From Leucoraja ocellata (taxonomy: Eukaryota): a DNA stretch of 64,000 nt. Below the pieces are notes generated by a model. It did not search any database. It worked only from the letters and a program-made list of their open reading frames with translations, and was not told the DNA's origin. The DNA is taken from contig JAWMAR010000023.1 of assembly GCA_036785375.1 (NCBI GenBank), positions 1,116,001-1,180,000 on the forward strand. Reading direction: 5' to 3'. Of the stretch, positions 2,449-55,159 are shown piece after piece; the stretch's first letter is position 1, and each line of letters begins with the position of its first letter. The translations under genes and the position numbers were made by a program.

Positions 2449-2597
2449 TAGTCGGAAGTCTTTAGTCTGAAGAAGTGATCCAATCCGAAACCGCACCTAA
2501 TCCTTTTCTCTAGAGATGCTGCCTGACCCACTGAGTTACTCCAGTGTTTTGCGTCTATCTTTGGTATAAACCAGCATCTGCAGTTCCTTCCTACACA
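2449..2597 (+). mobile_element. Short Penelope-derived insert with decayed hammerhead motif
   Basis: CTGAAGA at 2467 ... CCGAAAC, then the family tail AGAGATGCTGCCTGACCC.CTGAGTTACTCCAG. TSD TGAATAAGT(A/T)ACT at 2436-2448 and 2598-2610. Confidence 0.75.
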
Positions 2598-3003
2598 TGA
2601 ATAAGTTACTAGACGTGAAGATAGTTATGACTTTTTAAGTTAAAGCCATTGTGATGTAGAGTAAAATATTATGTTGTTCTGGTAGATTATGTGGTGTTTA
2701 AAATATTTATTTCTGATTGCTGTGCTATAGTTTCAATTTTCCAAGGAATGGAATGCTATTAAACAGTGGTCATTGAGCATATCACTTTCAGAGGAAGCTT
2801 TTAGCAATGAGTTCTGCATTTGGATTATTTGCTAAAACTTCGGGCAATCATCCATGCTCAATCCATTCAAGCTGTTAACATTTTCTGAATGTAGCGACTG
2901 AGATCCGATTGATCGGTTTAATGTGTATTGAGGATTTTAATGTTTTATTAAATTACAGGCCTTTTCTCATTTTTAATGTAGCCATGGATTTCTTTTTATA
3001 CAG

Positions 3004-3096
3004 GCAGCCTTCCAGTCTGGCCAGAATGCAGCTCCACCTCCTCTTGTGTACTCCCAAAATCCACAGACAATGACTACGCAACCACAGGCAAGACAG
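3004..3096 (+). CDS. EIF4G3: EIF4G3 exon (93 nt, phase 0-0): AAFQSGQNAAPPPLVYSQNPQTMTTQPQARQ; internal ATG at 3070
   Basis: Pyrimidine tract + tacag acceptor; CAG|gtaagc donor. The peptide resembles the eIF4G3 segment ...SGQNA...LVY.Q.PQTMNSQPQ (recalled). Open and in frame with downstream exons. Confidence 0.88.
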
Positions 3097-3749
3097 GTAA
3101 GCTCTCCCTGGGAAATTGCCAATGCAGCATCTTGATTTCATTCACAATTATTATTCTATTGTTAAAAGGCATGCTATTAGTGTTATGCATTTTATTTTCA
3201 GTGCTTTCCACAACAGAATAATTGCCACCCAGTCATTGATAACTACAACACAAAATAAAAGCTGAAAATGCTGCAAATACTGCGCAGATCAGCTGCCTAT
3301 GTGGGAAGAGAGTGTTATCGTTTTAGGTCCAGCGTCTTTCATCAAAACTGGAAAGGAGAGAGAGAAGTTTGTAAAGCTGTAGGGAGGGTCGGGATATCGG
3401 TGGGAGGGGGAGACGTAGGGTTGTAGATGAGATGGATGTCTTTGGTAAATCTGATCACGGCCAAACTGTATCCAAGATTATTTGTCAATGAGTGCATGGA
3501 AGAAGTTATATAGTGAGAACATGGACAAAAGAACATCAACAAAATAACATGGAAGTTGCAATATGCAAAGCTGGAAGACATGCCCCCCAGGCCCAGAACA
3601 GAACAAGCAATGAGTTCCCAGGAGCTCTCTGAGACCTGAGACTCTGACCCCACAGATAAACACCAATATCAAGTCCCAGACCGTTTCTGATTTAATCGTC
3701 TGACGATCTCCCCCCATAACTTCCAATCATATCGTTCCCCAGCCCCGCA

Positions 3750-4400
3750 TTGTGTGTTTCTATATCCTCCCCAAAAGCCGCAAACAGGACTGCCCTGGCA
3801 GACCCATCGTCTCTGCAACCCCTTGACGCACTGAACTCATCTCCACAGTCCTTCCCACCTACATCCAAGACACTCACATGCCCATTCAATAACTTTCTAG
3901 ACCTAAACTTCAAATTTACCTGGACTATCACTGACCTCTCTGCCCTTTCTTGATCACTTTGTCTCCATCACAGGCGACAGACAATTGACTGACGTTTACT
4001 ACAAACCCACTAACTACCACAGTTATCTGGACAACACTTCCTCCCACCCTGCCTTTTGCAAAGACTGTGTTCCCTACTCTCAATTAATCCATCTCCGTGG
4101 CATCTTCTCCCAATATGAGGCGTTCTATGCAAGGACATTGGAGGTCCTCTTTCTTTAGTAAGTGTGGTTTCCCCCTCCATATGGCAATGGTGGATCCCTC
4201 ACCCACTTTTCCTTTTGTCCTGTAGTTCTGATCTCACTCTAACCACCCCCCCCTCTGTATCTCCTTCCCAGTTCTAACAAAATACATTTGACCTGAAAAG
4301 GTCATTCTTGTTTCTCTTCCTAAAAATACTGCTTGACTTGATCTGTGTTTCTGGCATTTTCTTTTTGGATTTAGATTTATAGCATCACCAGACATTTTGA
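3750..4400 (+). mobile_element. Decayed Penelope-like element fragment (RT C-terminal part and tail)
   Basis: LNFKFTWTI / TDVYYKPT...SYLD-like motifs, homologous to the 33360-34835 copy. Confidence 0.7.
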
Positions 4401-7274
4401 TTTATATTTATATGTTAACACAGTTTTGTTTAATAGAACTTGCTATATAATATTTGTAAGGAATATCAGCCATGATCGGTCGGTGTTGTCGACGTATCAT
4501 AACATTTTTATGAACGATATACCAATCTGTTACACAACTCAAGAATTACCATCTTGGGAGTAGTTTTTCCTGAATATTTATATTATTCACAAATTATTAT
4601 AATTCAAAATATACTTTTTAAAATTTAATTGATGCTGAAACTCTTACTTATTTGAGCAAGCTTAAACAACTTTTGGGCATTTTAATGAGCAGAATTGCCT
4701 GCAAGATTGATTTATTGCATATTGCCTAATTCACAAAGACTATCATTATTCCTTTTAATATTAGTAGTAAACATGAGAATCATTAGTTGTCATAGATTCT
4801 TCATTACCTCTTCACTTTGTAGAGTCCTGTAAAAAGTGTCTTGAAAAAAGCATTTCCTTACTTTACCCAAAGAAATCTGACTTCTTGGTGACAATTTCTT
4901 TCTGTACCAAAATGATCCAACAACACTTTTTGCCATGTACCATGCGAAAGCTGCAGCAGGAATGATCAAGTTTGTCTCACTTGGTATCTTTTTGGTCTTC
5001 CTTTGGACAGAAAGAGCAGAGAGATAGTACTCTTTTAGTCCTGTTGAAGGGTCTCTACCCAAAATGTCTATTGTCCATTTCCCTGCTCAGAGGTTGCCCG
5101 GCCCTCTGGGTTCCTTCAGCAGCTCTATTTCATTGGATTCCAACACCTGCAGTCTCTTGTGCTTCAATATCCCTTTTAACTGACTCCCTCTTGTGGAGCT
5201 ATAATGATATTTATATCTGTGTATAACACCCACTTAAGTTTGATACTTATTTTGCTAAGTCTCTTCCTAAAAGACTCTTGAGATGTTTTGCTCACTTGTG
5301 AGAGATTTATTTTCCCTTTTTAATGAACTGTGCCAATTGTGCTCAACAAAGAATTATTGGAATTCATCTGTGTGTAGTATTGAGATCTTGCTTGTTGACT
5401 ACCTCCATCGATTACAGAATATTTTCAATATGTTTTCCTGTCTCCCTGTCAACTCTTTGCTTATTGCTGATAACCCAGGATTGCTGATAATAGTATTTTT
5501 ATGGCATAATCCTCGTGGACGGCAGCCACTCTTTCTCCATCTATTCCTTTCTCAGCTGCCCCATCAAAAGTAATCATCCCTTTTGCTGAAATAATCTTTT
5601 TTACTCCATCATTTACCTTTTTTCTTAAGCTTGAAAAACGTAAACATCTTGAATTAAAATAAAAAAAAATTGCAATAAGCTTCAAGTACAGAGAAAATGG
5701 TGAATAGGTTCAGCAGAAAGTGAATGAAGTCACGGCATGTTTTCCTTGTAGTCCATGCCTTAATGGAATTGGTTGCTGTTTCTTTTCCTTTGGTTCTTAT
5801 TTTCAGACCTCATTCTTGATCACTCCTTTCATATCTTACCAAACTAAACTTACCACTTGCAATTTACCTTTTTTTCTATCTGGTCATCAAGACTAGGCTT
5901 TGAAATGATCTCTCATGTGAGTGCTTTAGAGCATTCAAAATGTGCATATCTGAGTTAATTTGACATCTATCTCTATTTTGTAAAGTACAATTCTATTGGA
6001 CTGACGACTTGTTAGCAAGTCCGAACTGCTGTTCTTATCCAATACACACAACTACTGCCATGGCTATTGTTCACTTGGTCATTCCTCTGCAGTCATTTGG
6101 TATTGAGATGCAGGTTATTTTCTACTAATATCCTTGGCCTATACATGCCATATTTCTGCCGTGTTTCACCAATGTATTAGCAAAAAACATCTTAGACCTG
6201 GACTGTTGCGTCTTGGGATTTTGCTAAGTCAGTACAAGCAGTTGAAATAACATACCGTTTCTAATTTAACTAAATTAAATTAAACAATGTCTACTGTATG
6301 TTTCTCAATGAACTAAGTAAATCAGTTTGTGCATTATTATCAGAACTAGCATTAATGAAGATGGGTAATTTATCCAAAGTTTTAGACTTTCAGCATTTCA
6401 ATGTTAGTTGAGGTGACTCCTCTAAGATATTACCTTACAGATAGCTGGTTGACGAGATGTATGCCATTATTGCCATTTCAAAGTGATTACAAGGATGTGG
6501 GCAAGAATGTTTTTGCCTTGTGCTTTATTTGAGACATGCATTCAGAAACATTGTTAAAATAAGCCAGTGATTTATATTTAAAAATGACACTTTGATTGTG
6601 ATCTTATTGTATGTTTTAATCTCAGGCCCCTTTATCCCTCTGTAATTGCTACGTTTTTGATCCTGTCATTGCCCTAAATTGATATTGTCCAGCTGGGTTG
6701 GACATTCCATGTCTGAATTCTGTCCTGCCCTATCTAATTGTAGCACAGTGCATCTTTGGTAGTGCTTCCTCCTCTGCAATTTGAAGAATCTGTCTTTGTT
6801 ATCCTTTTTCTCATGTACGTGTGCCTGTAATATCAATGTAGCTTACTCATCTCAAATGGGTTTGTTATCATTTATTGCCTCAATGTTCAACAGTTTTTCC
6901 TCTTTAAAAGTAGTTTGCATAAATGTTGGTTTTTAATTGATATTATTCATTTTGATTCTTTGAAAATTGCAATTACACCAAGCATTGTCCTTAAGCACAA
7001 GGTAAATATTTCCTTTTTAAGGCGTCAAGATCGTGATCTCATTTAATTTCAGTTTAGCAGAAAAATTAATTTGTGTATGATGGAATGCTGCCTTGTAATT
7101 CTGATTTGTGGAAAGCTTTAATTTTCTTTTAAACCTAATGTGTGTTTAGTGACATCAAGTGCTGGTATATTAGAACTGTGGTTTAATGCTTGTGCTTTTG
7201 AGTTTTCTAGTCTGTCCTTGCGTTCTTGCTGACTCTGTGTGCCTTTCCCTTGTGTATTTCTTACTTCTCTTCAG

Positions 7275-7307
7275 TTCGCAGCAGGGCCCCGGGCTGCCCA
7301 CCACCAG
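7275..7307 (+). CDS. EIF4G3: EIF4G3 33-nt cassette exon: FAAGPRAAHHQ
   Basis: Long pyrimidine tract ending ttctcttcag, donor CAG|gtattt. Frame-preserving GC-rich island in an AT-rich intron. Resembles the eIF4G3 alternative peptide FAAGPRPPHHQ. Confidence 0.85.
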
Positions 7308-9680: not shown

Positions 9681-9776
9681 AAAGATAAACACAAAAAGCT
9701 GGACTAACTCAGCGGGTCAGACAGCATCTCTGGAGAAAAGGAATAGGTGACATTTCAGATCGAGATCCTTCTCCAG
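9681..9776 (-). mobile_element. Short Penelope-derived hammerhead-family insert (decayed core)
   Basis: The reverse complement gives CTGGAGAAGGATCTCGATCTGAAATGTCACC plus the family tail. Confidence 0.7.
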
Positions 9777-10439
9777 AAAAATATATCTTGGTAGTAATGG
9801 GGCAGGAACAGATGAGAGAAAAAAGGAGGGACAAGATGGATGGATTGATCTGCAAACAAAGATGAACATTTTAAAATCAACATGTCATTTGAAGATGAAC
9901 AAATGTAGAGCTGATGATGAACAATACTTAAAGTTAAGACAAGGCCTTTCAGATCACAACATCGCAAGTATACAGAGAGTAAACGAGGAAAATCTGAAAT
10001 GAATGCATCATAATAGACAATGCTGGGTGTTACAAAGGCATAACTAAGGGTTTCAGAAGCAGCGGAAGCAACAGTGGAGACAGGTAACGCTATGAAGGTG
10101 GTAATAATGATTTTGAAAAGTGATAGTGATGTGGCCCACAACCCATCTCGAGCAGTCTGGTTCAGTTTCAGATAGGGAAATGGATAGTGTTTGTGTCAAG
10201 ACTTTGTTTTGGGAATTAAAGTTGACAGCTATTCTTAATATTTAGCTGAAACATATACTCAAAAGTTAATGGACAAATGTTTAGACAGTTTAAAGATAAT
10301 AAAAGAGGTAAATGCATGCATGGACATGGTAATTGAGGAAATGGACTCTTATCATATTCAAAAGTACCCACCATTAATACTTTAAAAATAAATTGAGGCC
10401 AATGAGGAGCCAAAAAATATGACTGACAGACTAGATTAA

Positions 10440-15050: not shown

Positions 15051-15570
15051 ATATATTGCTTGAGCACACTTGACTAATTCCACCCATCAAAGCCCTTGGC
15101 ACTCTGGCTTGAGAAATGAATTTATATTTGTCTATGGTTTGTGGTTTGCCTGATTTTGTTTGAGGCTTCCAGCATGTGCTGTAGCTTACCTTCAGCATTG
15201 GTGCTCAACTTTAACCTTATTCAGAAACACACATATGGAATTGATAGATAAGGATAATATTTTATATTTATGGCATAGCTATTTATAGCACAGCTTTTAA
15301 ATAGACGAACAAAGTCTGCAAGTGCTGACTTATTACAAATGAATGCCTACGTGGGCAAGGTACAGAAGATGATTCATGTACTGGGATTCCAGATATAGGA
15401 GGGGGAAAAGATTGTAATGAACCTTTTGCATGAATTCTTTTGAAATATGGCATATTGATATACATAATATTTGCCTGAATTTGATCATGGTTCCTTCACT
15501 CGTTTAATTTTTTCATTGGGTTTTGATGATGTACTTACTCTGCCATAATACATAGTTCATAACAGACATG

Positions 15571-15661
15571 TAGACACAAAATGCTGAAGTAACTCAGCGG
15601 GACAGGCAGTATCTCTGGAGGGAAGGAATGGGTGATGTTTCGGGTCAAGTCCCTTCTTCAG
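15571..15661 (-). mobile_element. Short Penelope-derived hammerhead-family insert
   Basis: Reverse complement: CTGAAGAAGGGACTTGACCCGAAACATCACCC plus tail. Confidence 0.75.
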
Positions 15662-16520: not shown

Positions 16521-18629
16521 ATTCAAGGTAATGTAACCTTGCTTGTTTGTACCGCATCCACCATTCAATATGTTCACTCACTCTACATCCAATGAACTAC
16601 CTGCAGAATGCATCATTTACATACTGCATGCTCTTATTTAGCAGTCGCTCAAGTTTTGATCTTAACTGCAATAAACCATAAGATAGCATGCTCATGATTT
16701 TACCACCATTTCCAAGAACTCTTCCAAGTATCAGGCTTTGGAAATTGCTGTAATAACAAAACAGCAATATAAGTCCTAGGTTTCTTGCCCAACAGAACTT
16801 TTGATGTACTTTTATCAGGAAGAGAACAATAGCTTACGGCAGCTCCTTATACTACCTTTGAGAGCAGGTGGAGAAGGGCTATAAACGCAGGCTTTGTCAG
16901 TGATGTGGACATCCTGCAATTAAAAAAAAAATCTGTTATATCTACAGTGGTGGGAAGGAGAGGAAAGTAAGTATTTTAACATATCGATAGCTTGAATATT
17001 ATGCAGGGAGGTTCAAGATATCACTGTCCAAATGAGTGAAATTGGCTCAATGATTGTTGCTGTTAGGATATCACCCCAGTGTTGGATGCGTAGACCAACT
17101 TCCAGATTAAATTTCAGATGATAATGTTTTCATAGTACTGATTCTGTAGCTATCCTAGTGTACTGACATTTTTCAACAGGTACATTCGGTTTTCAAAAAT
17201 TGGCTAAGCCCAAAAGCTGCTCCACAGGAACTTAATAGACATTCATAGCACAGAACAGTTGAAAAATATATGGAAGGTCAGTATTGTCTTTTTCAAATGG
17301 AATGTTGCCCAAAGAATGGAAATAAGCATGCGTATCATTATATTTTGTTTTGAGTAAAATTTCAATTAAGAAAACAATTTGCATATTTATTGAGCAAATC
17401 TGTTTCAGCTGTCATTCTAATCTGGGTGTGAGAATGATCTAAATTTGTGAGGTGAGGTGTTGTCATTATCTCCCAGTACATGTCGTCTTGCTGGATTTTA
17501 CTGCAATGTCTGACTAGGCATTTATTAAAAGTAGGAAGAGACTATTGTCAGGCATTACAACTGTGAAACAAGAAAAACTCAGCTGTCCCATAATTTGTTT
17601 ACCTTTGCTCAAATGTGGTAACTGTTACGTTTTCAAATGTGATGCCTTTTTTCGATTTACTGCCTCACATTGGATAATGTAATATGACGAGTAAGAACTG
17701 TACAAATGTTAGCATCCAGTCTTCATGTTTCTCTTTAATATTAATCAAGTGTGGGTGTAGTGAGCTCTGAAGCTTTTGCAGTGATAATGATCACTGGCTT
17801 TTCTGGCTGTTCCTAAACCTGTTAATTCCTCACATTGCTATCTGGCTCATCTGAAAATACAAAATGGATTTAACAGTTATTGGCCCCCTTGTATTCTTAA
17901 GACATTAATGTCAGCACATTATCTGAAACTAAATCTGCGTATTTTACCTTCCCTGTGAACTTTTGCAATGGCTCAGTTGATACCACACTTTGTCAAGTCA
18001 TAAGGTTCAGCTTTCAATTTCTACTCCAGAGACTTAGGCACAAAGCCTCTGGCACTGCAGTGCTGTACTAAAATGTCAAACAATCAAATCCGCTGTCTTT
18101 CAGTTGAGATGTTGAGCTGAGTGGCTGTCAGCTTTCTCGGGTGCAAGTAAAAGGCAAGGCATTATTTAGAAAAAAAATGGCATGGTTCTTAACTACTGTT
18201 GTAACCTGGTCCACATTATGTCTTAAACCAATCTTTCTAAAACAGATTATCTAGTTATTATCACATTACTATTTGTAGGATGCAAGTTGTTAACTCCAAT
18301 AGAACGTTGAACAGTACAGCATAGGAACCAACTATTCTGCCCACGATGTGTATGTCGAACATGATGCCACGTTAAACTAATCTCATCTGCTTGCATGTGA
18401 TCCATATTCCTTGCATATACATGCACCTATTTAAAGCCTTTTAAATGCCACTATTACATCTGCCTCCACCACCACCACTCCTGATAACCTGTACCAGGCA
18501 TCCACTGCTCTCTATAAAACTCATCTATGTTTGCCCATATTGCAGGAGTGACTGCACTTCAAAGTACTATATTGGTAGTAAGATGATGAAGGACGTTCTG
18601 AAAGAAACATGAGAGATATATAAATACAA

Positions 18630-18722
18630 AGACGGATCTAGACCCGAAACGTCACCCATTCCTTCTCTCCAGAGATGCTGCCTGTCCCACTGAGTTACTC
18701 CAGCTTTTTGTGTCTATCGTTG
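18630..18722 (+). mobile_element. 5'-truncated Penelope-derived hammerhead-family insert
   Basis: GACCCGAAACGTCACCCATTCCTTCTCTCCAGAGATGCTGCCTGTCCC; the CTGA box is missing. Confidence 0.75.
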
Positions 18723-18959
18723 ATTTGACCTTTGTTCAACAAGAGATTGCAATTGAGACCTGTTCAAAATCCACATTAGCAGTTGTCAGTGGATTTATGA
18801 TGTGATATAATATACTCTACGATACATTATTATTAGGTAGCTGTGCCAATTTGTTCATTATTCTATCATAACTAGTTAACAGAAACAACAATGTGTAGGA
18901 ATAAACATCTTTTGCTGCTCACATAAACAAAACACAGTCTCGACATGTTTATTGAAACT

Positions 18960-23159: not shown

Positions 23160-23203
23160 GATAGGAGTCTGAAGAAGGGTTTCGGCCCGAAACGTTGCCT
23201 ATT
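23160..23203 (+). ncRNA. Minimal type I hammerhead ribozyme motif (PLE-type, dimer-dependent)
   Basis: CUGAAGA (23169-75), A, stem II GGGU-UUCG-GCCC, GAAA, palindromic ACGU stem III, GUU triplet, short stem I with GCCUAU. Confidence 0.7.
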
Positions 23204-23261
23204 TCCTTCGCTCCATAGATGCTGCCGCACCCGCTGAGTTTCTCCAGCACTTTTGTCTACC
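23163..23261 (+). mobile_element. 99-bp Penelope-derived insert with 17-bp TSD
   Basis: Perfect TSD TTAGGATGATTAAAGAT at 23146-23162 and 23262-23278. Confidence 0.88.
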
Positions 23262-25209: not shown

Positions 25210-25285
25210 GTCTGAAGAAGGATCTCGACCCGAAACATCACCAATCCATGTTCTCCAGAGATGCACCCTGATCTGTTTAGTTATC
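25210..25285 (+). mobile_element. Short Penelope-derived hammerhead-family insert nested in CR1
   Basis: CTGAAGAAGGATCTCGACCCGAAACATCACC plus tail. Confidence 0.75.
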
Positions 25286-26466
25286 CAGCACTTTGAGTCA
25301 TTTTTGACTATCCCTAATCATTCCGTGGCTTTCGAAATGCAAATATATCCTGTCTCTCAAAATCCCCGATAATAACTTGCCTGTCATTGATAGGGTCGGT
25401 AGTTAGCCTATAGTTCCTTGGCTTGTCCTTGCAGTGATTTTTAAATCTCTTCCTGTAAGGTGGAAAGAGAAGAGATAAAAAGACAGGCTTTCATTTTCTG
25501 TGGTTGCATGTGAAGATGCTGTAATAAGAGGAGTGAATGTTGAGGAGATTGCATGTTCCGTGGAAGGCACGTTCCCTGTAGTCCTTTCGGTCCCTTCAGC
25601 ATTCTGAAGGAACCAGGCTCTTCAGGAATCCTTGGTTCAATCTTGTATCTCCAAATTAGTTCTCCTTAAAGCATCTTCCATTTTACCTTGACCTAACATC
25701 CAAGGTCCCAACCAGGTGAAGCTACAGTTCAGAACATAGCCACAAATTGGTGGAGTAACTCAGTGGACCAGACAGTAAAGAAGGAATATGTGAAGTTTCG
25801 GGTAGAGACCATTCTTCCTTTCAGTTGCATTTCTCCCAATTTAACGTGCCGCAGTTGGTGCTCACAGTGTGGTTTCCTCTGCATTGGAGAAGTCAAATGT
25901 GGGTTGGGTGAACTTTTTGCAAAACATCCTGCTTTTCGTATGCAAGAGTAACCCTGACATTCCAGTTACATGTCATTTCAATTCGCTATTGCACTCACTG
26001 ACTTTGGCTCTTACACAGATCCAAGAATGCTCAATGTAAGCTTAAGGAATAGCATCAGTTTCGGGTTGATCAGCTGTGATTAACCGAACTTCTCATCCCC
26101 ACTGTTGATGCCACCTCCACTTGTTTCATTCAATAAATCTCACAAATGTTTGTCTGTTCTCACTGCCCCACCCCATGCTACTTTAAAATGTGTTTAATTT
26201 CTAAGATTTTGTAGTTTTGTTGAAAAATCATTCACCTGAAACATTTTCTCTCTACAAATGTTATCTGATCTGAGTGTTTCCAGCATCTGTATTTTGCTAT
26301 GTTGAATCTGGGATAAGACTGCAATCCAAAAGTTATATAATGTCACTTTATTGTGATAATTATTTTCAACAAAATCAATTGAAGTTTTTTTTTAGAAGTA
26401 TTTGAAGTGTTGTTCGTAAGAAATGACATGCGCTGAAACTAATTTTGGTTTGTGCTTTTATAATAG

Positions 26467-26575: not shown

Positions 26576-29095
26576 GTAAGTAGTAAGCCACTAACAAAAT
26601 TTGAGGATTAAAAAAAAAAAAGAATAGATTGAATGGCATTTATTCTGAGCTCATGAAATTGATTGCACTTAATCGTCTTTTGGTTTCTCAGTTCATCTTA
26701 GCTGTTTTAAACAGAAGTTTGCTGTGAGCCAAGTTGGTTGTTGTTGATAATAGATACAATAGTCAACATTGGAAATAAGAAAACCTTGAGCAATACTTTC
26801 TAATGTAAAATCAATGTACTCACTGCCTATTTATTTATCGTCTGAAATTAGATATTTATGTGAGTATAATTGGATACTGGTGGAGAGACTTTTTTTCCGA
26901 CCATTCCAAGTTATGCTTATATGATGGGCTTCCATCCACATTTTTTTTTCATGCTCTCTTAAAAGGACCTTGAGGGTCAACCATGTAACTCCAATCCTGC
27001 AATGCATGTCCAGCAACAGCAGTATTCACGGGCCATTTTCCTTGTATTAGTCCACAAATTACCAGATGTATTGATTTCAGTTTCATGATGTTTTTAGGAT
27101 TGAATTTGAGTTAACCTAGATTGCTCATTTAGATAACCAGTGGCAAAAGTTTTGAGTTGTATATCTGTGGTGAAGTACTTGTGCTTGCATGCCTGGCATC
27201 AATACTCATAATAAGAGCAACTAAACCATTGCACAAGCAGCATATTGGTGTATCATCAAATCATTTTGGTTCAAGTGCAGTAGTACAGCATTTTACTGAT
27301 GGTGTACGTCTTTTAGATTATTGCCAACTAAACATAGCTTTTGGAACTAGAGTGCAAGTTCAATTAAAATTTAGTATACAGTTTATGGTATCCTGCAGAT
27401 TTTTATCTGTGGCACACTTAATAGCAAAAATGCTGATGCTGGTGTGAAGGTATGTAATCAACAAACTAGATTTGAAATTGCATATTGCCCAGCCATCTGA
27501 GATGATTTATTTAGTTTATCTAAATGTTTAAAGAATACGGCGCCACATATTATGGTTCAGTAAGTGTAATGATCCACTTGTATAATTGCTGTAAAATTTT
27601 GGTTGCCCCAAATTGTAATGCATTGCAAGGCAAATGTATGAGTCTTTGCTGTAATTGACAAGTAAATTGTTGATTGATATTTAATTTTCAGTAAATAATT
27701 GAGACAAATCTGGTAAGCCAAAAGTTCATTGTGTTAACATTTTAGAAAGTTATGAATGCCTGTGATTGGTGTCTAGGAACACGTCATTTAGAATTCCTAG
27801 AAATATGTAATTATATATATGGTGAAAATATTTATCCCAAATGTGTCCACATTGGTCAAAAAAATTGCTCCATAGATGCTGCCTCACCCGCTGAGTTTCT
27901 CCAGCAATTTTGTCTACTTTAAGCTATTCGATTAAATTACTTCAAGTTATCAGCTCATCAAGGTTCCTCCATTACTACGTTTTGTCTCCGCCTGCACTAT
28001 TTCTGTCGGTGACTTCCACTTCTCTGCAACTAATTTACTCTTTGTGTCTATTTCCAGTCCACATTTACTAAACGATGTCACCCTGATAAGATTGACTTTA
28101 CCTTAATTTATAACTTTCACTCCTAGTTATGTCTATCCTTCATTGTAAACTCAAAATGATGATTGGTGCTTTTATAATTCTCCCGCTCTGCCATCCTTCC
28201 TGTTGCCCCAAGCTCATGAATTAAAGTTGTCCAGTCCCCACCTCTCCTTGGATTTGCTGAGTATGATTTTATAAAAATGGTGTTATTATTTGTCCATTTC
28301 TCAGAAACCTTCCTGTTCGGTTCAATCCTGTTTGGAGCCTTGGGTACGATCTAAGCAATGCGATTACAACTTCTTTATTTTTCAGATTAACTTTGACTTT
28401 TCTAGTATATGATCTTTCCTCACATCTGTAGTAATTTCTAAAATGAATATTGGTATACATCGTCTCTTTCTTCTCCAGCCATGTGACCCAGGAATCTTGA
28501 GCTACTTTTTCTCCCCATCTTAAACCATGTTTTGGCAAAAGTCATATGATCATACTCTCAGACGTTTCTGTGCCTTCTGTTCACTTTTTCCGAGATTCCT
28601 TGAATTATATAATTACACACTGCCAAATTACAAGTAGACCCGTTATTTTAAGCAATCGCGATATTTCAAATGAAGATGTTTATTTTCTTCAAGATATTTT
28701 TGCAGTCTAATATTGTTGAATCTCCTTGCGTGCGCTACTGCCTGGTAGCCCAATCTGTGATTTCAAAATTGGTTGTGGCTTAATTATGTCAAAGTATTGT
28801 GATGGTCTGGTGAGAATAATTTCAAAAAACTCTGGAGGTGCCTAGTAACTTGGAGAGCAGTAATACCAGAAAAATTTAGGCGGCAGATGAAAGATTTGAA
28901 CTGATTCTCATCTGAAATCAAAATCCAGGTTTGTGTTCAACTAATTTACTTTGTTTAATTAAGAGGTAAATGCAACGGGTAGTTCATTCTCAGTTAATGT
29001 CTATGTAAATTTCAGCTGAAATGTAGAATGGAAAATGCCTTACTATTAATCAGTTCTCATAAAGTTTTAATGTAGCTTTAGTTTCTCTCTTCCCT

Positions 29096-32100: not shown

Positions 32101-32655
32101 TATAGGTTGAAATCACTCTTACTGATGTTACCTTTTTTTTCATGCAATATATTTGGAAGCTGAATTTAAATTGTTTGCCATGCCACAATTGGAATTTAAC
32201 CTGCAATCTGTGGGTGACTATCCTGTAACGTGTTATCCTATAACTATTACATTTTACATAGGAATGTGGCTTAAATTCTGTTCTGAAATATATCTTCAAC
32301 GTGCACTCATTTGTGAGAGAAGCTGTCATGGAAATGTAATGTAGTTGGCTGTTTTCATGGAATAAACCAATCTGTAAGTGAGAGGTCTCTGAACTTTAAT
32401 TAGTTAAAATTAGACTTTTCTAATATAGTGATTTAATTATTTGACTTGTCACGCAGTTCAGACGCACAAATACTTACATTTTGTAGTTAGAGAGCTGAAT
32501 ACTGTTTATAATTTTTCAAAAATAATAATTGCTGAGGTAGGAATCATGCAACATAATTATTCTCTCGCTTCCCTTACCAGTACTTATCAGCAAATTATCA
32601 ACAAAAACTATGATGTGGCATTATTTTGTTCTTGCAGAACTTAGGAATCACATAG

Positions 32656-32855
32656 GTTACACAAAAAAGCTGGAGAAACTCAGCAGGTGCAGCAGCATCT
32701 ATGGAGCGAAGGAAATAGGCAACGTTTCGGGCCGAAACCTCGGCCCGAAACGTTGCCTATTTCCTTCGCTCCATAGATGCTGCTGCACCCGCTGAGTTTC
32801 TCCAGCTTTTTTGTGTAACCTTCGATTCTCCAGCATCTGCAGTTCCTTCTTAAAC
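32656..32855. mobile_element. 200-bp Penelope-derived insert with inverted duplication and 17-bp TSD
   Basis: TSD ACTTAGGAATCACATAG at 32639-32655 and 32856-32872. Arms 32654-32735 and 32740-32821 are reverse complements with one mismatch. Confidence 0.9.
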
Positions 32856-33359
32856 ACTTAGGAATCACATAGTTGTTGATCCATTAATGTTACCTGTTGG
32901 ATGTCATGAGTAATTCCAGTTGATCTAATTTGACCATGAATAGAAATCAGCTGATGTCCAAATAAGATAATTAAACAACCACATCTAATTAGCTTGAACA
33001 GTTCATGCTAGAGGTATTATGATTGTGATTATTGAGATATTGGCATCTAAATATAGAAAATATTATAATTTACAGCAGTTTGGTGATAGTCCGACAACTG
33101 ATTATAGTTCAGGTCCTTTTCATTGAAAATTAAGCATTGAAACAATTATCTTTCAGTAGGGAGGACAATAGGGAAATTGCTGATTTTTTAATGATACTGT
33201 TTGACAATATTACTGTGCTGAATCAGTCATCTTAGTTTGAAATGGCTGTCTTGAGAAAAAATGCTAACTGATTTGAAAACTGTAGATGGAATCTCATTTT
33301 CCCCATATGCTGCTATCGAAATTTGTGTTTTAATAAATCCACAAGTGCTATCATCTCTT

Positions 33360-34835
33360 TTGTCCCAAAGTAGCTATTTCTGATAAAGGACGAAACTGTT
33401 GGTAGCCCTTCATTTTTCCTCGACTGCAGAACCAGATAATTTCCATCTGGTAACACTCTCCTCCACCCAGCAGAGCTGGTCCTTTTACCCATATCAACTT
33501 CTCCTTTGACTCCTCATACTTCCTCCAAATCCAAGGCGTAGCTATGGGCCCAGCTGGGCGTGCCTCTTTGTTGGGTACGTCGAACAATCACTGTTCCAGG
33601 CATACACTGGCCCTATCCCCAAACTCTAACTCCACAACATTGACGACTGCATCCATGCAAAACTCACTGACTTCATCAACTTCACGACTAATTTCCATCC
33701 TGCACTCAAATTCACTTGGACCGTCTCCGACATCTCTCTGCCATTTTTAGACTCACCGTCTCCATCTCAGGAGACAGACTATTGACTGACATCTATTATA
33801 AACTCACTAACACCCATAGCTATCTAGACTACACTTCTTCCCACCCTGCTTCTTGTGAAGACTATCCCCTGCTCCCAATTACTCCCTCTACACCGCATCT
33901 GCGCTCAGGATGAGATTTTCCTTACCAGGTCATCGAAGATGTCCTCGTTCTTTAGGGAACGGGGATTCCCCTCTTCCATTATAGATGAGATTCTCACTAG
34001 GATCTCCTCGCTATCCCGCAGCTTTGCTCTTGCTCCCCTTCCCCCCCCATTCATAACAAGGACAGAGTCCCCCTTGTTCTCACCTTCTACTCCATCAGCC
34101 GTCGCATACAGCATATAATCCTCCAGCATTTTCGCCACCTCCAACGGGATCTCGCTACTGGCCACATCTTCCCATCTCCACCCCTTTTGCTTTCCAAGAG
34201 TGTTCCCTCTGCAACTCGCTGGTCAAATCGTCCCTTCCCACCCAAACCACCCCCTCCCCAGGTACTTTCCCCTGCAACTACAGGAGATGCAACACCTGTT
34301 CCTTTACCTCCCTCCTTGACTTCATCCAAGGACCCCGACAGTCTTTTCAGGTGAGTCAAGGGTTCACGCACCTCCTCCAACCTCATCTACTTTATCCGCT
34401 GTTCCAGGTGTCAACTCCTGTATATCGGTGAGACCAAGTGTAGGCTCGGCGATTGTTCTACTTCAACCTACGTGATCTCCCGGTTGCTCAGCACTTTAAC
34501 TCCCCTTCCCATTCCCAATCAGACCTTTCTGTCTTGGGCCTCCTCCATTGTCAGAATGAGGCCCAGCGCAAACAGGAGGAACAGCACCTCGTATTTCGCT
34601 TGAGTAGCTTACACCCCAGCTGTATGAACATTGACTTATCTAACTTCAAATAGCCCGTGCTTTCCCTCTCTCTCCATCCCCTCCCCCTTCCCAGTTCTCC
34701 CACCAGTCTTATTGTCGTCAACTACATTCTATCTCTGTCCCGCCCACTCCCCTGATATCAGTCTGAAGAAGAGTCTTGACCCAAAACCTTACCCATTCCT
34801 TTTCTCCAGAGATGCTGCCTGTCCCGCTGAGTTTT
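33360..34835 (+). mobile_element. Penelope-like retroelement (Neptune-type) pseudogene: RT + GIY-YIG endonuclease + terminal hammerhead-bearing tail
   Basis: QIQGVAMG, .IDD, LKFTWT, TDIYYK.T..HSYLDY, and LIYFIRCSRCQLLYIGETKCRLGD (GIY-YIG-type with CxxC). CTGAAGA at 34763. Multiple frameshifts. Confidence 0.88.
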
Positions 34836-36762
34836 CCTAGTCCATTTAGCAATTCGCAGAGCCTATCGGATAATCTGATCATTCAATTTTCACAAAGCTT
34901 ATTTTTGAAAATCAATAAATTTCCTACTGTGAATTCAAAACATTATATAAGATTGAATCTTTCTAGCTATAAGTTTAGGTGCTGTACACTGAGCATGGAT
35001 GAAGGTTATATCTGGCAGAGAGAAAGTGCTGAATCAGCATGGGAAGGATTGTCCCAAGCTGTAGTGCTGTAGTTTTAAAGCAGTGCCAGATTTTCAGCTA
35101 ATAAATCTGAAAATACATTGCTGTGCATCAGTCGGTCCTGGACTTTGGGAGATGAGAAATACAAAAATAAATTGCTGATTATGGCTTGGTGCTAGTATTT
35201 AGAATTTATTTTAAGTTAATCATGGCATAGTTGTGATCAGTTATGTTTAGCCACTGATGAAGCCATTGTGCAGGTGCTGTGGAAATCACAGCATTGACTT
35301 GACATACTAATAATGTAATCCACAGCAGCTTTTGGTTTTATGTGCATTCACATCCTTGTAGGTATAGCACTTGACAAAAATATAGTATTTGTAATTTTAT
35401 ATAACATTTGACAAATAATGAATTGTAAAGGCTGACTTTCTCACTGGAGGAGAAAATATTGTGGAAAAATTGAGTGATGAGTTAAAAGATATAACTACTC
35501 GAAGTTAATGTGAGTAATTAAAAACCCATGGATCAGCCAAAAGTGGATCCTCCCTGTTGTGATTAGAATGCCTTTGCTGCAGTGTGGTTGGTGAGGATTT
35601 TTTGGTGGAATGTAATTACTGTGAAAATGTTGTTGAATCCACAGGCTAAATAACTTATTTCAAAGGAATGAAGCATGGAGATATATGCTGAGATAAGTTT
35701 CAGTGTTTCCTAGAAATGTTTGTATTAGTGTTTTTCTCCTAAAGCTATTCAGATCAAGTAGATTTATCCTGTACATTGCTGTAGATCTTTCTCAACATTG
35801 TTTTACTAAACCCATCATAAACTATTAAGCCAATAGATCCTGAACTGTTGGGACTTTAAAGAATCATTACTTCATTCATAGTTATGACCTTTGCCATAAA
35901 AATAGTTTTGTAATCTTGTATTTTGTCATTACATTCAGGGTTTCAAAAGCAATTTCTGTGATGGTCCCACTAAATTAAGCAAAGAGATATTCTACGATTC
36001 ATGAGCAAGTGGTCTGTATCGTTTTCTTTCTCAACACAAATGTCACAGTAATCATTTTTACTTAAAAAAATAAAAATAAAAATACAATTTCAGTGCCACC
36101 CATATGCAGATTTGCAGGGCTGACAATGGAGAGAACAAGAGCTGATCCAGAGAATACAATGGCCAAACCACGTGCCTGCTCACCAGGATCATTCAATATC
36201 GATAACCAGTAAATTTGCAGCCTTATAATCACAGTCAACCAAATGGACATCTCTGTCAGCGGACAGATTTTTTTTAGCTTATGGGAGAATTTTGCAATTT
36301 TATTATTTTCCTTCCTGTTGGGGAGACACTGTTTGAAGATTACTGCATACATTTGTATACGTCCCATACCGAATCCTCTCAGTTTTGAAACCACTCCATC
36401 TTTGCATCCCACCTTCCACCCACCCTGCTGCATGCACAACAAGCCTCGGGTTTGTGATTGAATACTTAAAGCAAAAACAACAATAAAGATCCAAAAACAG
36501 CAGTGCTTTCTTGCAAGAGTGAAAGGAACATTGCAGTGTGTCATTTGGGTGTTTGAATTCTAAGTTGTCTTGATAAGAACGGACTCCTGAGCTCTAGTGG
36601 GAATACTGGCTTACATTCAAGTGTTCATTACAACTAATGCCAAAATATACCATATTGTATCAACTGTGATGTGCATGAATTTCGAAAACTCCATAAAGTT
36701 ACCTATTATTGAATGTGCGGAGCATGTTTGGATAAATTGTGATGTGCATTTTCTTTCACCAG

Positions 36763-40727: not shown

Positions 40728-40862
40728 AACGTGTCGGAAAGAACTGCAGATGCCAGTTTAAATCGAAGATAGACACAAAATACTGGAGTAACTCAGTGGG
40801 GTAGGCAGCAACTCTGGTGAGAAGGAATGGATGACGTTTCGGGCCGAGACCCTTCAGACTGA
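40728..40862 (-). mobile_element. Short Penelope-derived hammerhead-family insert
   Basis: Reverse complement: AGTCTGAAGGGTCTCGGCCCGAAACGTCATCC (3 nt deleted in the core); ATACAGGGT(C/T)A occurs on both sides. Confidence 0.75.
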
Positions 40863-42012
40863 TTCTGAATACAGGGTTATATTCACACCAATTTATTTTA
40901 TCATTGACAATCTTTCTAATTGGTAAGCACAACACTGCTATTGTAGAAAATGGATTGGCAAGCTGGCACCAGAACAGGCATAAATGAATCTGTTTATTGT
41001 ATTCAAGATAATAAACAGGAATATGCCATAGGGATTAGTAACTTTTAATAACTTTGATAAAGATACTAAAGGTATGGTTGTTACATTTTTTTGATGGCAT
41101 AAGATAGGAAGAAAAATAAGTTGTGAAGAGCAAAAGACTACTGCAAAGGAATATAGATATAGGTAAATTCTTGGATAAGGATCGAAGCAAGCAGATATGG
41201 GAAATTGTAAATTTTGAAAACAAATAATTAGGAAAACGAATTATCTTATTGTTTAATTGAAAGGGGAAATGAATACAAGGGTAGGGAGCCTATGTTTCCA
41301 TTATGTAGGGCATTCGTGAGACTACCTCTGGAATATTGCGACAGTATTGGACACATTATTTACAAAATGGAATAGTATAGAAGTAACAGAAAGGAACGCA
41401 TAAGAGGAGGGAAGACACTACTGGTTAGGGAGAACATAGAGTACTTAGGATTTCCTTGAGGGATTGTTCATTGAGGTAGAAGTTAAGAAAAGAGAGGCAA
41501 TCACTTTGAAGGAGCTTCTTGGAACTGAAAATTTAAAAAAAATAATAATTCAGGAATCTCAGCCAGCTCTCATCACTCAGCTATAGCTAAATCAAACTCT
41601 TCAAATGGCACAATCGATTTCTATTCCCATTTAATTGAAATTATTCTCTACCAAATGGCAGTCACATTCCCTTCCAGCTCTGCATGCATTGCTTTTGTTG
41701 ACCAGCCAAGTGTTGATATAATAATCAGACCATTAAATTAGCTGGTAGCTCCCTCGTGCTCACAATGCCCAAGAGTCGTCTAGTGAACCCAAGGCAGCCT
41801 GCCGAATACCCGGCCATAGCTTCAGTCATGATCGTCCAGTGCAGCATGTATTCTGTTGTAGTGCTTTGTTGGTGTATTGATAAATTTGCTGAACATTACC
41901 AAATATGATTTGGCTGGTTTTCTACAGCCTGAGGTGTGTGGAGCAGCCACTGAGATACCAGCTGTCCTAGCTGATAGAATGAGTATTCTTGCCAAGCCTT
42001 TAGCCCAAGCAT

Positions 42013-42014
<2 letters not shown>

Positions 42015-42056
<42 letters not shown>
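42015..42056 (+). repeat. G42 homopolymer
   Basis: Read directly from the sequence. Confidence 0.9.
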
Positions 42057-42057
<1 letters not shown>

Positions 42058-42839: not shown

Positions 42840-43890
42840 TTTCAATTTCTGGTCCCTTGTTGCCTCTTGGTTACTATGGACGCCCAGTCCCTTTACACCT
42901 CCAGCTCGCACCAGGAAGGTCTCAAGGCCTTTGGTTCTAACTAACAGATCCCAAACAGTGTCCTTTCACTAACAATCCTCTGGTTGGCGAACCTTGTCAT
43001 CACTCAGCAATTTCTGTCTGACATCTCACTTTCTTCAAGTTTCGGTGTCTCCAAGGGCACTCGCATGGGCCCCAGCTATGTCTACCCTTTTGTTGGTTAT
43101 GTGCAACAGCCCTTGTTCCAAATGTACACTGGCACCTTCCCGCAACTCTTTTTTCGCTATATTGTTGACTGCATTGGAGCTGCCTCCTGCACCTGTGCAG
43201 AACCCATTGATTTCATTAACTTTAATACTAACTTCCATCTTGCCCTCAAATTGACTTGCACTCTCTCTGACATCTCTCTCTGCTTTCCTGATCTCTCTGT
43301 CACCATCACAGGGGAGGGCAGATTATCAACTGACATAACTTGACTTGACTTGAATAAACTTGACTTGACTACAAACCCACCGACTCCCACAGTTATGGAC
43401 TACACCTGCTCTTGTAAAGACGCAATCCCGTCTCAAGTTCTCTGCCTCTGCTGTATCAACTCCCAAGATGAAACTTTCACTCTGAGATATCCGAGATGTC
43501 CTCTTTCTTTAGTAAACGTGGGTTTCCCCCCTGCTGTCATGGATGGATTCACCTGCATCTCTTCTGTGTCTCATAGTTCTGCACTCGCTCCCCCTCTACC
43601 CACACAAAACGAGTATAGACTTCCCCTGGTTCTTCCCTTTCACCCCCCAACCTCCGCATCCAAAACATAATTCTCCAACATTTCTGCCACCATCAACATG
43701 ATCCTATCACCAGTCACATCTTCCCATCCCGACCCAATTTTGACTTCCGCAGAAACTGCTCCCTCCATGACTCCTTGGTTCACTCAGCCCTTACCACCTC
43801 CGACCCAGGTACTTTCCCTGGCAACCAAAGGAGATGTAACACCTGTACCTATACCTCCTCTCTGGCAACTATCCAGGGATCCCAGTAGCC
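42840..43890 (+). mobile_element. Penelope-like element RT fragment
   Basis: LLVTMDAQSLYT, GTRMGPSY, FFRYIVDC, LKLTCT motifs; homologous to 33360-34835. Confidence 0.8.
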
Positions 43891-43892
43891 AT

Positions 43893-49756: not shown

Positions 49757-49858
49757 TGCAGAAGATAGACACAAAAGGCTAGAGTAACTCAGCGGGTCTG
49801 GTAGCATCTCCGGAGAAAAGGAATGGGTGACTTTTCGGGTCAAGACCTTCTTCAGACT
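49757..49858 (-). mobile_element. Short Penelope-derived hammerhead-family insert
   Basis: Reverse complement: AGTCTGAAGAAGGTCTTGACCCGAAAAGTCACCC plus tail. Confidence 0.75.
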
Positions 49859-50939: not shown

Positions 50940-51087
50940 AAGAAAAACCAATGCCGGAACCACCAGTGAAAAGTTCTACCCCAGATGTTAGATCGGAAAT
51001 AGTTGAAGAAAAGAAAGAAATTGATGGAGAACCACCTGATCCAGTTCCTTTACAGGTGGCAGAAGAGGAGGAGGTGGAGGTGGAGGT

Positions 51088-51118
<31 letters not shown>

Positions 51119-51731: not shown

Positions 51732-53139
51732 GTAGGTTTCCATTAAATAAGACTGTCTGCATTATTTCAGTTCTCTATGTTAAAAATTGTTGTAGTATAA
51801 CGTTGCGAAAAAATCAAGTGTCTCTTGGATATGAAAATTGTTTTTGTATTTTCTTCACAATTTTCTATTTGTGCATTCCAGTTAAGAATGATTTTGAAAT
51901 CTTTACTGCTTGTATACCGTGTCACTGCTGTGGCAGATTTCAAATAGTTTTAGTTTTGCTTTCATTGCATTCAGACTCCCATTCTGTTATTGCCATGGTG
52001 ATCCAGTTACAATGTTTGTATTATTCTGTTCATTATTCCAATAGTGGTTTTGTCTCCCATTCCAACAGAAAACCAAAACTGATACAAAGATGACTATATA
52101 CTGAGTGCCAATGAAAACTGATTTTTTTTAACACCAGGCAGGGAAGGAATTGCTTTCAAAAACTTTCAACTGTAAAATCGGGTTGTCTAATAACTAAAGG
52201 GGCCATGTAGATCACAAAAGTTCCTGGTTCAGTCTTTGATCTGTTCTGATTTAACTAAATGTTCCTAAGATTTTACGATTCAAAGTTGGACTCAAATTTC
52301 GTGTCCCAGAGGGAAGGGAATTAGTAATGGTTCTTTAATGATTGCACAGTACATTTTCCCAAATATATGAGAGTAGAATCAGGCAGAGCTATGTAATTCC
52401 TTATCTGAAATAGCAGCTGATGATTTTAACTCAATTGTATATGGAAACAATGATTATAATTACTAATGGCAATTAAAGCTGAGGTACCAGTATCTTGAGA
52501 GTTGGAAGATGACAAGATATTTTAAGAGGTGTGTTTTCATTTCATATCCAGTCTTCAATCTCATGAAAGTTTTGGCTATTTTCTGAATTAACTTTGTTCA
52601 ACTTGAATTTAGAACAAATTCACAATGTAATTGGTTACAGTGCTCAGACAAGATAAATATCACCATAGTGGTTTCCAAGCTCTCGCTGTCGATCACAGTG
52701 ATTTGAGTATACATGGTTATGTGACGGTATGTGAACCATGCTGGTCTTCTCAGTGGTTTATAGTCCTGAGGTTTCACTTTAAGATGCGTAGCCTATGTGG
52801 AAGTAAAAGATTAAAGTTGTTCATAAACCCGTACTCTTGTATGAGAAGATTTTCAGTTGGATCTAAAATAATGTATTACTGGTTATATCTGACATCACGG
52901 CCATACTTGATCAAATTGCAAAAACTAGGCTAATTCTTAAATCCTTAATTAATCAGTGTTTTAAAATGTATGACAACTGATGCACGTCAGCAGGAAAAAA
53001 GATCAATAGAAAGCTGCTGGAAGATATGGAGGAAGAGAGCAGGGATAAAAATAAGTAATATCTTGCAATGGCAGATGGCAAAATAGGAAAATGGTGTTTT
53101 GGATTTTATAAGCAGCCAGAATGCAACAAATAGCAAAAA

Positions 53140-53730
53140 TAAAGAGGTGGAGTTCTGGAAGACTGGAGCATTGTTAATGTTGTACCTTTATTTAAGGTAA
53201 GAAGGACAGTGAACATTGTCTACATGGCCTTAGACAAGGCATTTGGACGGTCGGCTTGACCAAAATGTTAGATTACATGGAATCCATGGTGAGCTAGCCA
53301 ATTGGATTGAAAATTGGCATGGGGGAAGGAGTCAAAGGGTAGTTGTGGAGGGTTGCTTTTTTGAGTGGAAGCTTGTGATTAGGGGTGTACCTCAATGATT
53401 ATTGTTGAGTCCATTGCTGTTTATAATATACATTTGGATGACAAAGTAGTCATCATCATTTGTAAATTTGCAGATGACAGCACGATGGGTAGTATAGTGG
53501 ACAGTGACTAAGGATTTCTAAGTTCATAAGAAGATCTAGATCAGTTGGGAAAGTGGGCCACGGAATGGCAAATGGAATTGAACTCTGGCAAGTGTGAGGT
53601 GTTGCATTTTCATATGTCAAACCAGACTGGACTTAAAACAGTAAGTGGGATTGGACAGGGAGAGATTGGGTATGCTGGGATTTTTTTTTCTTTTTTTGTG
53701 TTGGAGGCTAAGGGGTGGCCTTATTTGGGT
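53140..53730 (+). mobile_element. Old CR1 LINE RT fragment
   Basis: GVPQ, KFADD, DLDQLGKWA.EWQME.N..KCEVLHF remnants. Confidence 0.75.
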
Positions 53731-53734
53731 TAGG

Positions 53735-54616
53735 TTTATTATTTTCCTGATTTACCAAGGGACAGTGAAACAGTTTGTTTTTCATACTATTCAAACTGAT
53801 CAGTGATACATAATACAATCAAGCCAAACTCTAGTACAATCGGTAGAGCAAAATGAAAGGTACAGAGTGCGGAATATCATTTTCAGCATTGTGGAGCATC
53901 AGTTCCATAGACAAAGTTCAATATCCGCAATGCAATTGAAGTGAATAGAACGTTACCCGAGCTTATGCAAGGGCTGTACAGAAAACTGGTAATAGAGGGG
54001 AAGAAGTTATTCCTGGGTCTGGAGATGCATGCTTTCAAGCTTCTGCATCTACTGCCTGATGAAAGAATGAGTAGGGTGGGACAAGTATTTTCTGAGGCAA
54101 TGGAAGTGTAGTTGGAGGCAATGGTGGTGAATCTGGTCTGTGTGAAGACTGGCCTTCATCCACAAGTCTTGTGGCATTGGGTAGAGTTGTTCGCAAACCA
54201 AGCTGTGATGCAACCTGACAATATTCTATCTATGGGCATCTTTAGAAGCTTGTTAAAGTCAATGGAGAATTTCGGAGTCTCCTAACGAAGCAAAGACATT
54301 GGTATGCTGCCTTGGTTATCGCTACAATGTGGTTGGTCCAGGACAGATCGGTGATAGTATTAACACCAAGGTACTTGAAGCTCTCGAACATTTCCATTTG
54401 GGCACCATTGATGCTGATTGGAACAAGGACTCCACCATGCTTCTTGAAAATAACTAGCTCTTTTGTATTGCAGACATTGTGGGAGAGGTTGTTATCCTGA
54501 CGGCATGCTAGTAATTTGTTTTTTCCTGTGTGTTTTCCATCTTGTCCTTGCTCGTGATCTGACCCACCACAATGGTGTAATCTGCAAACTTGTAGATGGA
54601 GTGAGCCACATGTCAA
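53735..54616 (-). mobile_element. Rex1/Babar-type LINE fragment
   Basis: ORF 54242..54616: DNNLS.NV..TKELVI...ESFKYLGV..TDLSW..H; + strand begins with the inverted 3' tail. Confidence 0.65.
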
Positions 54617-54998
54617 ACCATTGGAATTATTGAGGTCAAATTGTGGATTATCTGAGTTTTACTGCAGTAAATACTGAGAGATATTAGAGATTACAGTAGA
54701 TAGGATAGGAGTAAACAGATCCAGCAATCAATTAACTTAAAATGAAATATTTCTTCATGGGGATGAAAAGATAGGCATAATTGTATTTGTGTATGGTATG
54801 AGTGGTCTGGATAGCACACAAAACAGTTTTTTGTTATATCTCTCTTGTGTGTGCAACAATAAAATTTTCATTGGGATGAGATATTGTCCTTTTGCAAAAT
54901 ACTTGGAAATAAAAGAATGGGCGTGGAAGGGAAGGAGTGCATATTTCAGACATTGCTTTGCAGCCATACTCTTAATCATTCTTTGAAATAAGGTGTTT

Positions 54999-55159
54999 AA
55001 GAAGGAACTGCATATGTTGGAAAATCTAAGGTAAACAAAAGCGCTGAAGAAACTCAGCAGGTGCAGCAGCATTTATGGACGAAGGAAATAGCACCGTTTC
55101 GGGCCGAAACCCTTCTTCAGCTGCTGCACCCGTTGAGTTTCTCCAGCACTTTTGTCTAC
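54999..55159. mobile_element. Penelope-derived hammerhead-family insert with partial inverted duplication and 18-bp flanking direct repeat
   Basis: CTTTGAAATAAGGTGTTT at 54981-54998 and 55160-55177. Minus-strand core CTGAAGAAGGGTTTCGGCCCGAAAC at 55096-55120, followed by an inverted tail copy. Confidence 0.85.

Follow-up and report, generated by a model that had tools for sequence, protein, structure and literature searches.

Solitary minimal hammerhead ribozymes, 'probably related to truncated PLEs' (Penelope-like elements), have been reported genome-wide in other animals (PMC4209133). In vitro work on a Poseidon PLE places the start of reverse transcription internally, at two adjacent AC-rich sites, with both strands of the target cut and extended, a predicted protein dimer and uncleaved RNA as the main substrate; the two internal start sites also explain the PLE tail (PMC11167929), which is known to measure 30-40 bp (PMC8557442; PMC3846280). 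Animal non-LTR (long terminal repeat) retrozymes are tandem repeats of 150-450 bp units, each with a type I hammerhead, that are expressed as cleaved monomers and circles (PMC7229834; bioRxiv 10.64898/2026.07.22.740005), and the preprint among these sources includes PLE-derived retrozymes from, among others, one chondrichthyan genome. Here we compare these systems, as the cited portions of the sources describe them, with a family of short hammerhead-bearing copies in a 64,000-nucleotide stretch of the cartilaginous fish Leucoraja ocellata (contig JAWMAR010000023.1, positions 1,116,001 to 1,180,000; the window). The short copies are the 5' leader of an autonomous Neptune-type PLE and are probably made by internal start of the reverse transcriptase (RT) and run-off near the CUGA box of the hammerhead. 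The solo copies are likely by-products of the PLE and not an independent family able to propagate itself.

A single unit of 95-135 bp, a minimal hammerhead followed by a tail, forms both the 5' untranslated region (UTR) and the 3' end of the PLE. With +1 set at the G that precedes the CUGA box, the hammerhead occupies +1 to +33 and the tail reaches +133; an ATG at +167 opens the reading frame for RT and a GIY-YIG endonuclease (EN), followed by the 3' UTR and the hammerhead again, with a period of 3947 bp. The short element is therefore the 5' UTR of the PLE, and every insertion has it at its 3' end too. In the tandem elements reached by walking to the N-terminus, the tail runs on into the open reading frame (ORF). 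Among the 30 best endonuclease matches, inspected by eye, most continue past the stop codon into a 3' UTR of ~115 nt, rich in pyrimidines, and from there into the hammerhead and tail, and most of the EN-bearing copies inspected in this way finish in the same unit and at the same 3' sites. Subfamilies A and B both occur as long, ORF-bearing PLEs, and most tail variants are common to short and long copies.

One ORF encodes the PLE protein, which has an RT domain and, at its C-terminus, a GIY-YIG domain; in one unit this frame is unbroken over 1246 codons. Its matches to PF00078 (E=1e-6) and PF01541 (E=0.007) lie just below or below the curated cut-offs, and a search of the PDB gave no sequence match. 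RT and EN are connected by a CX4CX2C linker; a CX2-5CxxC linker is common to Neptune and Nematis (PMC8557442), and the machinery would thus be of the Neptune type, as proposed in the initial annotation. With Neptune-clade PLEs (Craig et al. 2021, PMC8557442) it shares the single RT-EN ORF, this linker class, partial tandems, inverted 5' copies and a 30-40 bp tail at one end, whereas the long N-terminal extension (ORF ~1230 aa) and the lack of evident microsatellite targeting set it apart. As in the Anolis Poseidon PLE (PAc; Frangieh et al. 2024, PMC11167929), the hammerhead sits where the pseudo-LTR (pLTR) meets the ORF, the tail is bounded by two AC-rich sites, here putative start sites, targets are AT-rich, both strands are used and cleavage would be dispensable. 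In contrast to PAc, the linker here is Neptune-type and the ORF begins 167 nt after the start of the hammerhead, not inside stem II; the cited part of that report gives neither a fixed 5' boundary nor an assignment of strand to site.

Recent activity, also claimed in the initial annotation, is supported by tandem units identical over 1578/1578 bases at one locus and by the intact 1246-codon frame. A 2.46-unit tandem PLE of 9.9 kb with a 14-nt target-site duplication (TSD), one unit of which carries this frame (G000:C1:8664439-8674309, L241-L242), is from its sequence a candidate active source. A seemingly conserved frameshift before the RT was discarded, as the 8-C run had been selected by the query; an unselected tandem has seven C and one open frame. 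Separately, dozens of near-identical, LINE-interrupted PLE copies on small contigs (L148-L180) apparently belong to a larger segmental or satellite unit.

We read the hammerhead on subfamily consensuses and autonomous copies. It has CUGANGA and GAAA boxes, an unpaired base before G10.1-C11.1 and a palindromic ACGU helix III (15.2-16.2), which in the PLE hammerheads of PMC4209133 needs a dimer; the proposed assignment to the PLE-type minimal type I hammerheads thus stands. The two sets also share thousands of solitary copies tied to truncated PLEs, and opposite-strand pairs. Helix II comprises 4 bp, compared with 7-8 in Schistosoma. Helix I consists of two contiguous pairs (U-A or U.G, then G-C), a 2x2 loop and two or three further possible pairs; it falls short of the 4-5 bp expected of PLE minimal hammerheads and resembles the 2-bp Drosophila variant (PMC4209133). 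The two stem II types that had been distinguished are real and differ by a one-sided change, U-A to U.G, at the fourth pair. The only other change between subfamily consensuses is of the same kind, at the first pair of stem I, and none is two-sided (compensatory). The youngest family differs from the hammerheads of PMC4209133 in its GUU cleavage triplet, found in 18/24 intact B cores, where subfamily A has GUC; GUC at +1 to +3 was considered as an alternative cleavage site and showed no helix I pairing on inspection. The predicted active dimer folds (-7.1 and -6.1 kcal/mol) are so far from the minimum free energy (-33.4 and -27.1 kcal/mol) that an active dimer would need a chaperone. The Rfam check suggested for the family returned no hammerhead family among 15 matches at E<=10, all of them chance hairpin or miRNA matches on inverted pairs. 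As an observation apart, a second pyrimidine tract with AG right before an ATG, at about +35 to +51 (e.g. window 23200-23218), is kept in all subfamilies and is possibly a splice acceptor or an upstream ORF.

For quantification, a profile built from 24 real copies was used. It was run on 1.064 Mb of this genome and on an enlarged sample of 1.464 Mb in 11 blocks, a non-random draw with two blocks adjoining long elements. The first set gave 526 matches, against 0 in a locally shuffled copy of it, and the window holds 21. In the enlarged sample, 723 matches cover 66.4 kb of 1.464 Mb (~490-500 per Mb); with ~4.5% of the sampled DNA, the unit is therefore a major repeat of this genome. For comparison, coelacanth and Xenopus have 4,000-9,000 intact motifs per genome, obtained with different detection methods (PMC4209133). 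Genome-wide counts are inflated by duplicates in the assembly: the window region has at least one, and G000:C825:384220-388389 (L062, L132), near-identical to window 33.4-35.1 kb, is probably the other haplotype. TSDs scoring >=10 were found for 32/193 solo copies in the sample, compared with 10/579 random controls.

The 5' ends were analysed on 180 solo copies among the 526 matches (score >=50, reaching +80, neither inverted nor tandem). Among the 126 that reach +4, 64 stop between -5 and +4, a rate of 0.051 per nt that exceeds the upstream rate (0.002-0.004 per nt from -26 to -398) about 15-fold; for copies of >=88% identity the figure is 42/70. Only 3/180 end around the cleavage site (+28 to +32). 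The ends are therefore neither random nor set by cleavage: the earlier observation that copies begin just upstream of the CUGA box describes a highly non-random pattern, and random truncation, named beforehand as the outcome that would reduce the family to ordinary PLE tails, does not describe it. Genome-wide, exact B-core counts are 34,112 for a start at +8, 23,829 at +2, 17,463 at 0, 14,995 at -1 (obtained by subtraction) and 12,079 at -3; the loss per nt, which includes mutation, rises from 6% to 10-14%. Of the 55 solo copies of subfamily B, 20 stop at -5 to +4, another 20 upstream and 15 downstream. A TSD was found in 15/22 short B copies, within -7 to +6 nt of the 5' end in 14, which shows that no flank was inherited; the TSDs of short copies measure 10-17 nt. 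The leaders between TSD and unit are heterogeneous, mostly 0-10 nt, and several repeat the first bases of the unit. The same boundaries were seen in contigs of two other organisms.

The 3' ends are bimodal in the profile, at about +89 to +101 (site 1) and +126 to +132 (site 2), ~37 nt apart. The predicted fold has two GCUG:CAGC helices with invariant bases, each ~15-20 nt before a 3' site. We identified 138 head-to-head pairs, of which 78 had both arms scoring >=45 and 69 had both ends classifiable. A site-1 arm is combined with a site-2 arm in 60/69, compared with 34.4 expected (p=1e-10), while six pairs are 1+1 and three 2+2. This suggests that the two nicked strands use one 3' site each; that one of two inverted arms carries the tail was already known qualitatively. 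Of the inverted arms, 40/98 break at the stem II palindrome, between +11 and +20. Head-to-head insertions also occur in a long form (L244, L245, L248; G000:C1), their arms 0.4-1.8 kb in length and one of them ending at each 3' site; both arms of L245 are broken within 30 nt of each other in unit position.

A 26-mer across tail and ORF start had 157 exact matches, and 20 of the 100 listed were fetched (9 short-period clusters and 11 others). Fourteen of these loci (L261-L270, L272-L275, e.g. G000:C13:10639000-10640100 and G000:C68:1251850-1252950) are permuted head-to-tail insertions in which the leader and ORF start, to +160 to +291, are joined to a point upstream (-180 to +44). The fragments measure 115-470 bp, with periods of ~200-370 bp in multi-unit arrays. 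Each array has its own junction, repeated identically within the multi-unit ones: seven junctions are blunt, five have a 1-base and one a 3-base overlap, and one has three added bases. All 14 start at +14 to +143, and the five with both ends fetched (L262, L263, L270, L273, L274) end at one of the two 3' sites and have a TSD, as judged by eye. Some end points recur across loci, namely +269 and +244/245 three times each, -44 to -47 four times and -127 twice. Ten arrays contain the core with its native helix I strand, one the core only and three no intact core, one of the latter being a 4.5-unit array. The 5' ends of the remaining six loci, all of which run on into the ORF, lie at +99, -48, -334 and, in three, beyond -458. 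The permuted layout is consistent with a circular template or end-to-end jumping; later expansion at the DNA level is possible.

Taken as the copying of a PLE leader, the process would run as follows. The enzyme would bind the leader of an uncleaved PLE transcript, and its GIY-YIG endonuclease would make a staggered cut. Both nicked strands would then serve as primers, each at one of the two AC-rich sites; the template would probably be a single RNA bound by a protein dimer, and cDNA synthesis would proceed back to the RNA 5' end near the CUGA box. One surviving cDNA would give a solo copy, two a head-to-head pair joined at the hammerhead palindromes, and longer and multimeric copies would come from more-than-unit, circularised or end-jumped templates. 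The RNA 5' end would most likely be a broad transcription start with an Inr-like YYANWYY motif immediately in front of the CUGA box; the pLTRs of PLEs house promoters that contain Inr-like elements (PMC2377424; PMC3846280). Since the cleavage site sets neither end, the hammerhead would be a passenger in the short copies.

Several observations weigh against this explanation. The 5' pile-up is broad (~10 nt), and the bases counted before A(0) (G 794, A 1102, T 572) do not point clearly to a G derived from the cap. None of the five least-biased ORF-through copies begins near 0 (L271 at -48, L279 at -334, three beyond -458), which adds the assumption that full-length copies arise only from multimeric or circular templates. 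Array junctions indicate other RNA 5' ends, at -44 to -47 in 4/14 and -127 in 2/14. One raw-read run from another organism listed no pile-up of starts, with about equal strands and no informative joints, and was not used as evidence. Heterotypic pairs are no proof of one shared RNA molecule. Finally, one tail variant occurs in short copies only (13 versus 0/15 long copies; 3 versus 0/41 in a biased set), which leaves room for short source elements.

A more tentative proposal, to which we give somewhat less than even weight, is that the loci record the whole cycle: a dimer would prime both strands at two sites of one RNA and run off at the hammerhead, while circles or joined fragments would give arrays of 2-5 units, so that retrozyme-like repeats could be born as single events that do not need the ribozyme. 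The arrays resemble animal non-LTR retrozymes in their head-to-tail pLTR repeats with a type I hammerhead in most units. They differ in having their own junctions and an ORF start, and in that 3/14 are without an intact core; the copies in the window are solo or inverted, none tandem, and their hammerhead is minimal rather than canonical. The arrays look like single TSD-flanked insertions, whereas the preprint favours local tandem amplification (bioRxiv 10.64898/2026.07.22.740005).

The alternative that survives best, though we consider it unlikely, is a hotspot imposed by structure or protein. Templates would extend further upstream, and RT or the joining of cDNA 3' ends would abort past the hammerhead at the C-rich tract, leaving ordinary truncated PLE ends. 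The breadth of the pile-up is in line with this, as is the continuation upstream of about half of the young B copies (12,079/23,829), and the breaks of inverted arms at the stem II palindrome indicate that hammerhead structure shapes junctions. However, stops at -5 to +4 were found in none of the 10 permuted arrays spanning the zone and in none of nine ORF-through passages, loci partly picked as tandems, which argues that the site is not an intrinsic stop. A hairpin stall would, moreover, be expected 3' of stem II and not 5' of the whole core, and leaders that repeat the first bases of the unit are what re-priming at a physical template end would give.

An independent, non-autonomous SINE (short interspersed element) or retrozyme, self-transcribed from solo copies and mobilised in trans by the PLE, had been the preferred interpretation of the initial annotation, and we now regard it as improbable. 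The very high copy number (723 in 1.46 Mb), defined ends and long TSDs are what such an element would show, for one tail variant the sample holds no long form, and pLTR sequences are enough for trans-mobilisation in a rotifer (PMC3846280). Against this, long PLE-linked copies occur in every well-sampled subfamily, the unit is the PLE's own 5' UTR, most tail variants are not restricted to short copies, the solo copies are not tandem and neither of their ends lies at the cleavage site. Their cores decay neutrally with age: in the 173 matches covering both +3 and site 1, intact cores drop from 24/28 in B to 13/68 in A, 0/19 in C and 0/9 in D. The Anolis PLE template needs sequence to ORF nt 172 (PMC11167929), which, if transferable, the solo copies would lack. 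A boundary set by a 3' splice site, with a pyrimidine tract and CAG ahead of the CUGA box, has a parallel in Drosophila Penelope, whose intron runs up to the 5' end of helix I (PMC4209133), but is very improbable here. The upstream variants inspected do have many pyrimidines and a terminal CAG, but there is no common upstream exon, the leaders are mostly 0-10 nt and varied, and no GT-AG joint ending there was found among the joints listed for RNA of another organism.

Within the window, all 11 positions singled out by the initial annotation hold a family member, although those at 32656 and 54999 proved to be inverted pairs rather than single copies. The shared motif holds as a consensus, but its strict pattern matches only one of the 11 (23169): the CUGA box is absent from the copy at 18630 and from both arms at 32656, and CpG-type or core changes are found in most of the rest. 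The long TSDs were found for four copies, with only a weak 9-nt match at 40728 and none at the rest. The first of the four, a young subfamily-B solo copy on the plus strand (23166..23260, named from 23163), ends at site 1, has a 17-nt TSD and has kept its minimal hammerhead core (23169-23196) fully intact, as no other copy in the window has. Its 3' junction recurs in contigs of a second organism; no empty insertion site was seen in the other-organism contigs, where a gap proves nothing. The plus-strand subfamily-A solo copy at 2449..2597 ends at site 2 with the tail, has a decayed stem II and a 13-nt TSD with one mismatch, and carries a 16-nt leader partly repeating the 5' end. In the B head-to-head pair at 32650..32856 (17-nt TSD), the minus arm reaches site 1 and the plus arm site 2; the arms are joined within the stem II palindrome, with the CUGA box in neither. 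The order is reversed in the B pair at 54994..55166 (18-nt TSD), with minus arm to site 2 and plus arm to site 1, and here the minus arm extends to the CUGA box.

The remaining subfamily-A solo copies lie at 9681..9777 (minus; site-1 end, decayed core), 15568..15661 (minus; starting at the CUGA box, site-1 end), 18629..18730 (plus; starting at about +6), 40731..40863 (minus; site 2 with tail, 3-nt deletion in the core) and 49759..49858 (minus; starting at about 0, site-1 end). An older solo copy at 25210..25307 (plus) starts at +1, and a B-type copy at 27865..27923 (plus), missing from the earlier list, is truncated at about +41 and has no hammerhead. Old copies were found at 5041..5158 (plus, diverged), 819-904 (plus), 12120-12205 (minus), 16432-16505 (plus), 19708-19776 (plus), 25730-25817 (minus) and 62118-62223 (plus). 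The parent element is represented by a 5'-truncated, frameshifted subfamily-A PLE at 33454..34847 (plus), which retains the C-terminal half of the RT, the CX4CxxC linker, GIY-YIG and 3' UTR and is closed by the hammerhead unit at 34761-34847. A second, older RT fragment at 42945..43885 (plus) has its 3' side cut off by a Tc1-like transposon.

Further old PLE RT/EN fragments lie at 3720-4170, 15915-16059 and 25697-25948. Two transposons that we take to be Tc1/mariner-like were seen at 38237-39839, with a broken transposase and 52-bp terminal inverted repeats at 98%, and at ~43900-44800, where one interrupts a PLE fragment. Exon-like peptides at ~22470-22650, 36800-36905 and 50912-52090, the last a large glutamate-rich frame of the host gene with 393 codons, presumably belong to an eIF4G, in line with the EIF4G3 label of the initial annotation. 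Outside the window, a 66-bp minisatellite derived from about +23 to +89 of the unit, without the CUGA box, forms several arrays in G000:C10:2000001-2100000 (L051-L060).

The feature is thus real, very abundant and of a known class, and the retrozyme/SINE label is unsupported for the solo copies. Our literature search, which had repeat databases outside its scope, found no account of this family in cartilaginous fish, of its fixed 5' boundary or of permuted arrays born in one event, and sharks and skates are missing from the two supplement files of PMC4209133 searched. Repbase or Dfam may well list the family, and the preprint tables for one chondrichthyan genome may list related arrays. Three questions are named as open in PMC11167929, PMC8557442 and bioRxiv 10.64898/2026.07.22.740005: the PLE transposition cycle, the role of its hammerhead and how animal retrozymes arose. 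A very young family of apparently Neptune type, whose ORF is intact and whose near-identical products number tens of thousands, offers in vivo statistics and an in vitro substrate for them. With its fixed 5' boundary, near-strict rule of one site per strand and independent permuted arrays, it would make the PLE mechanism testable.

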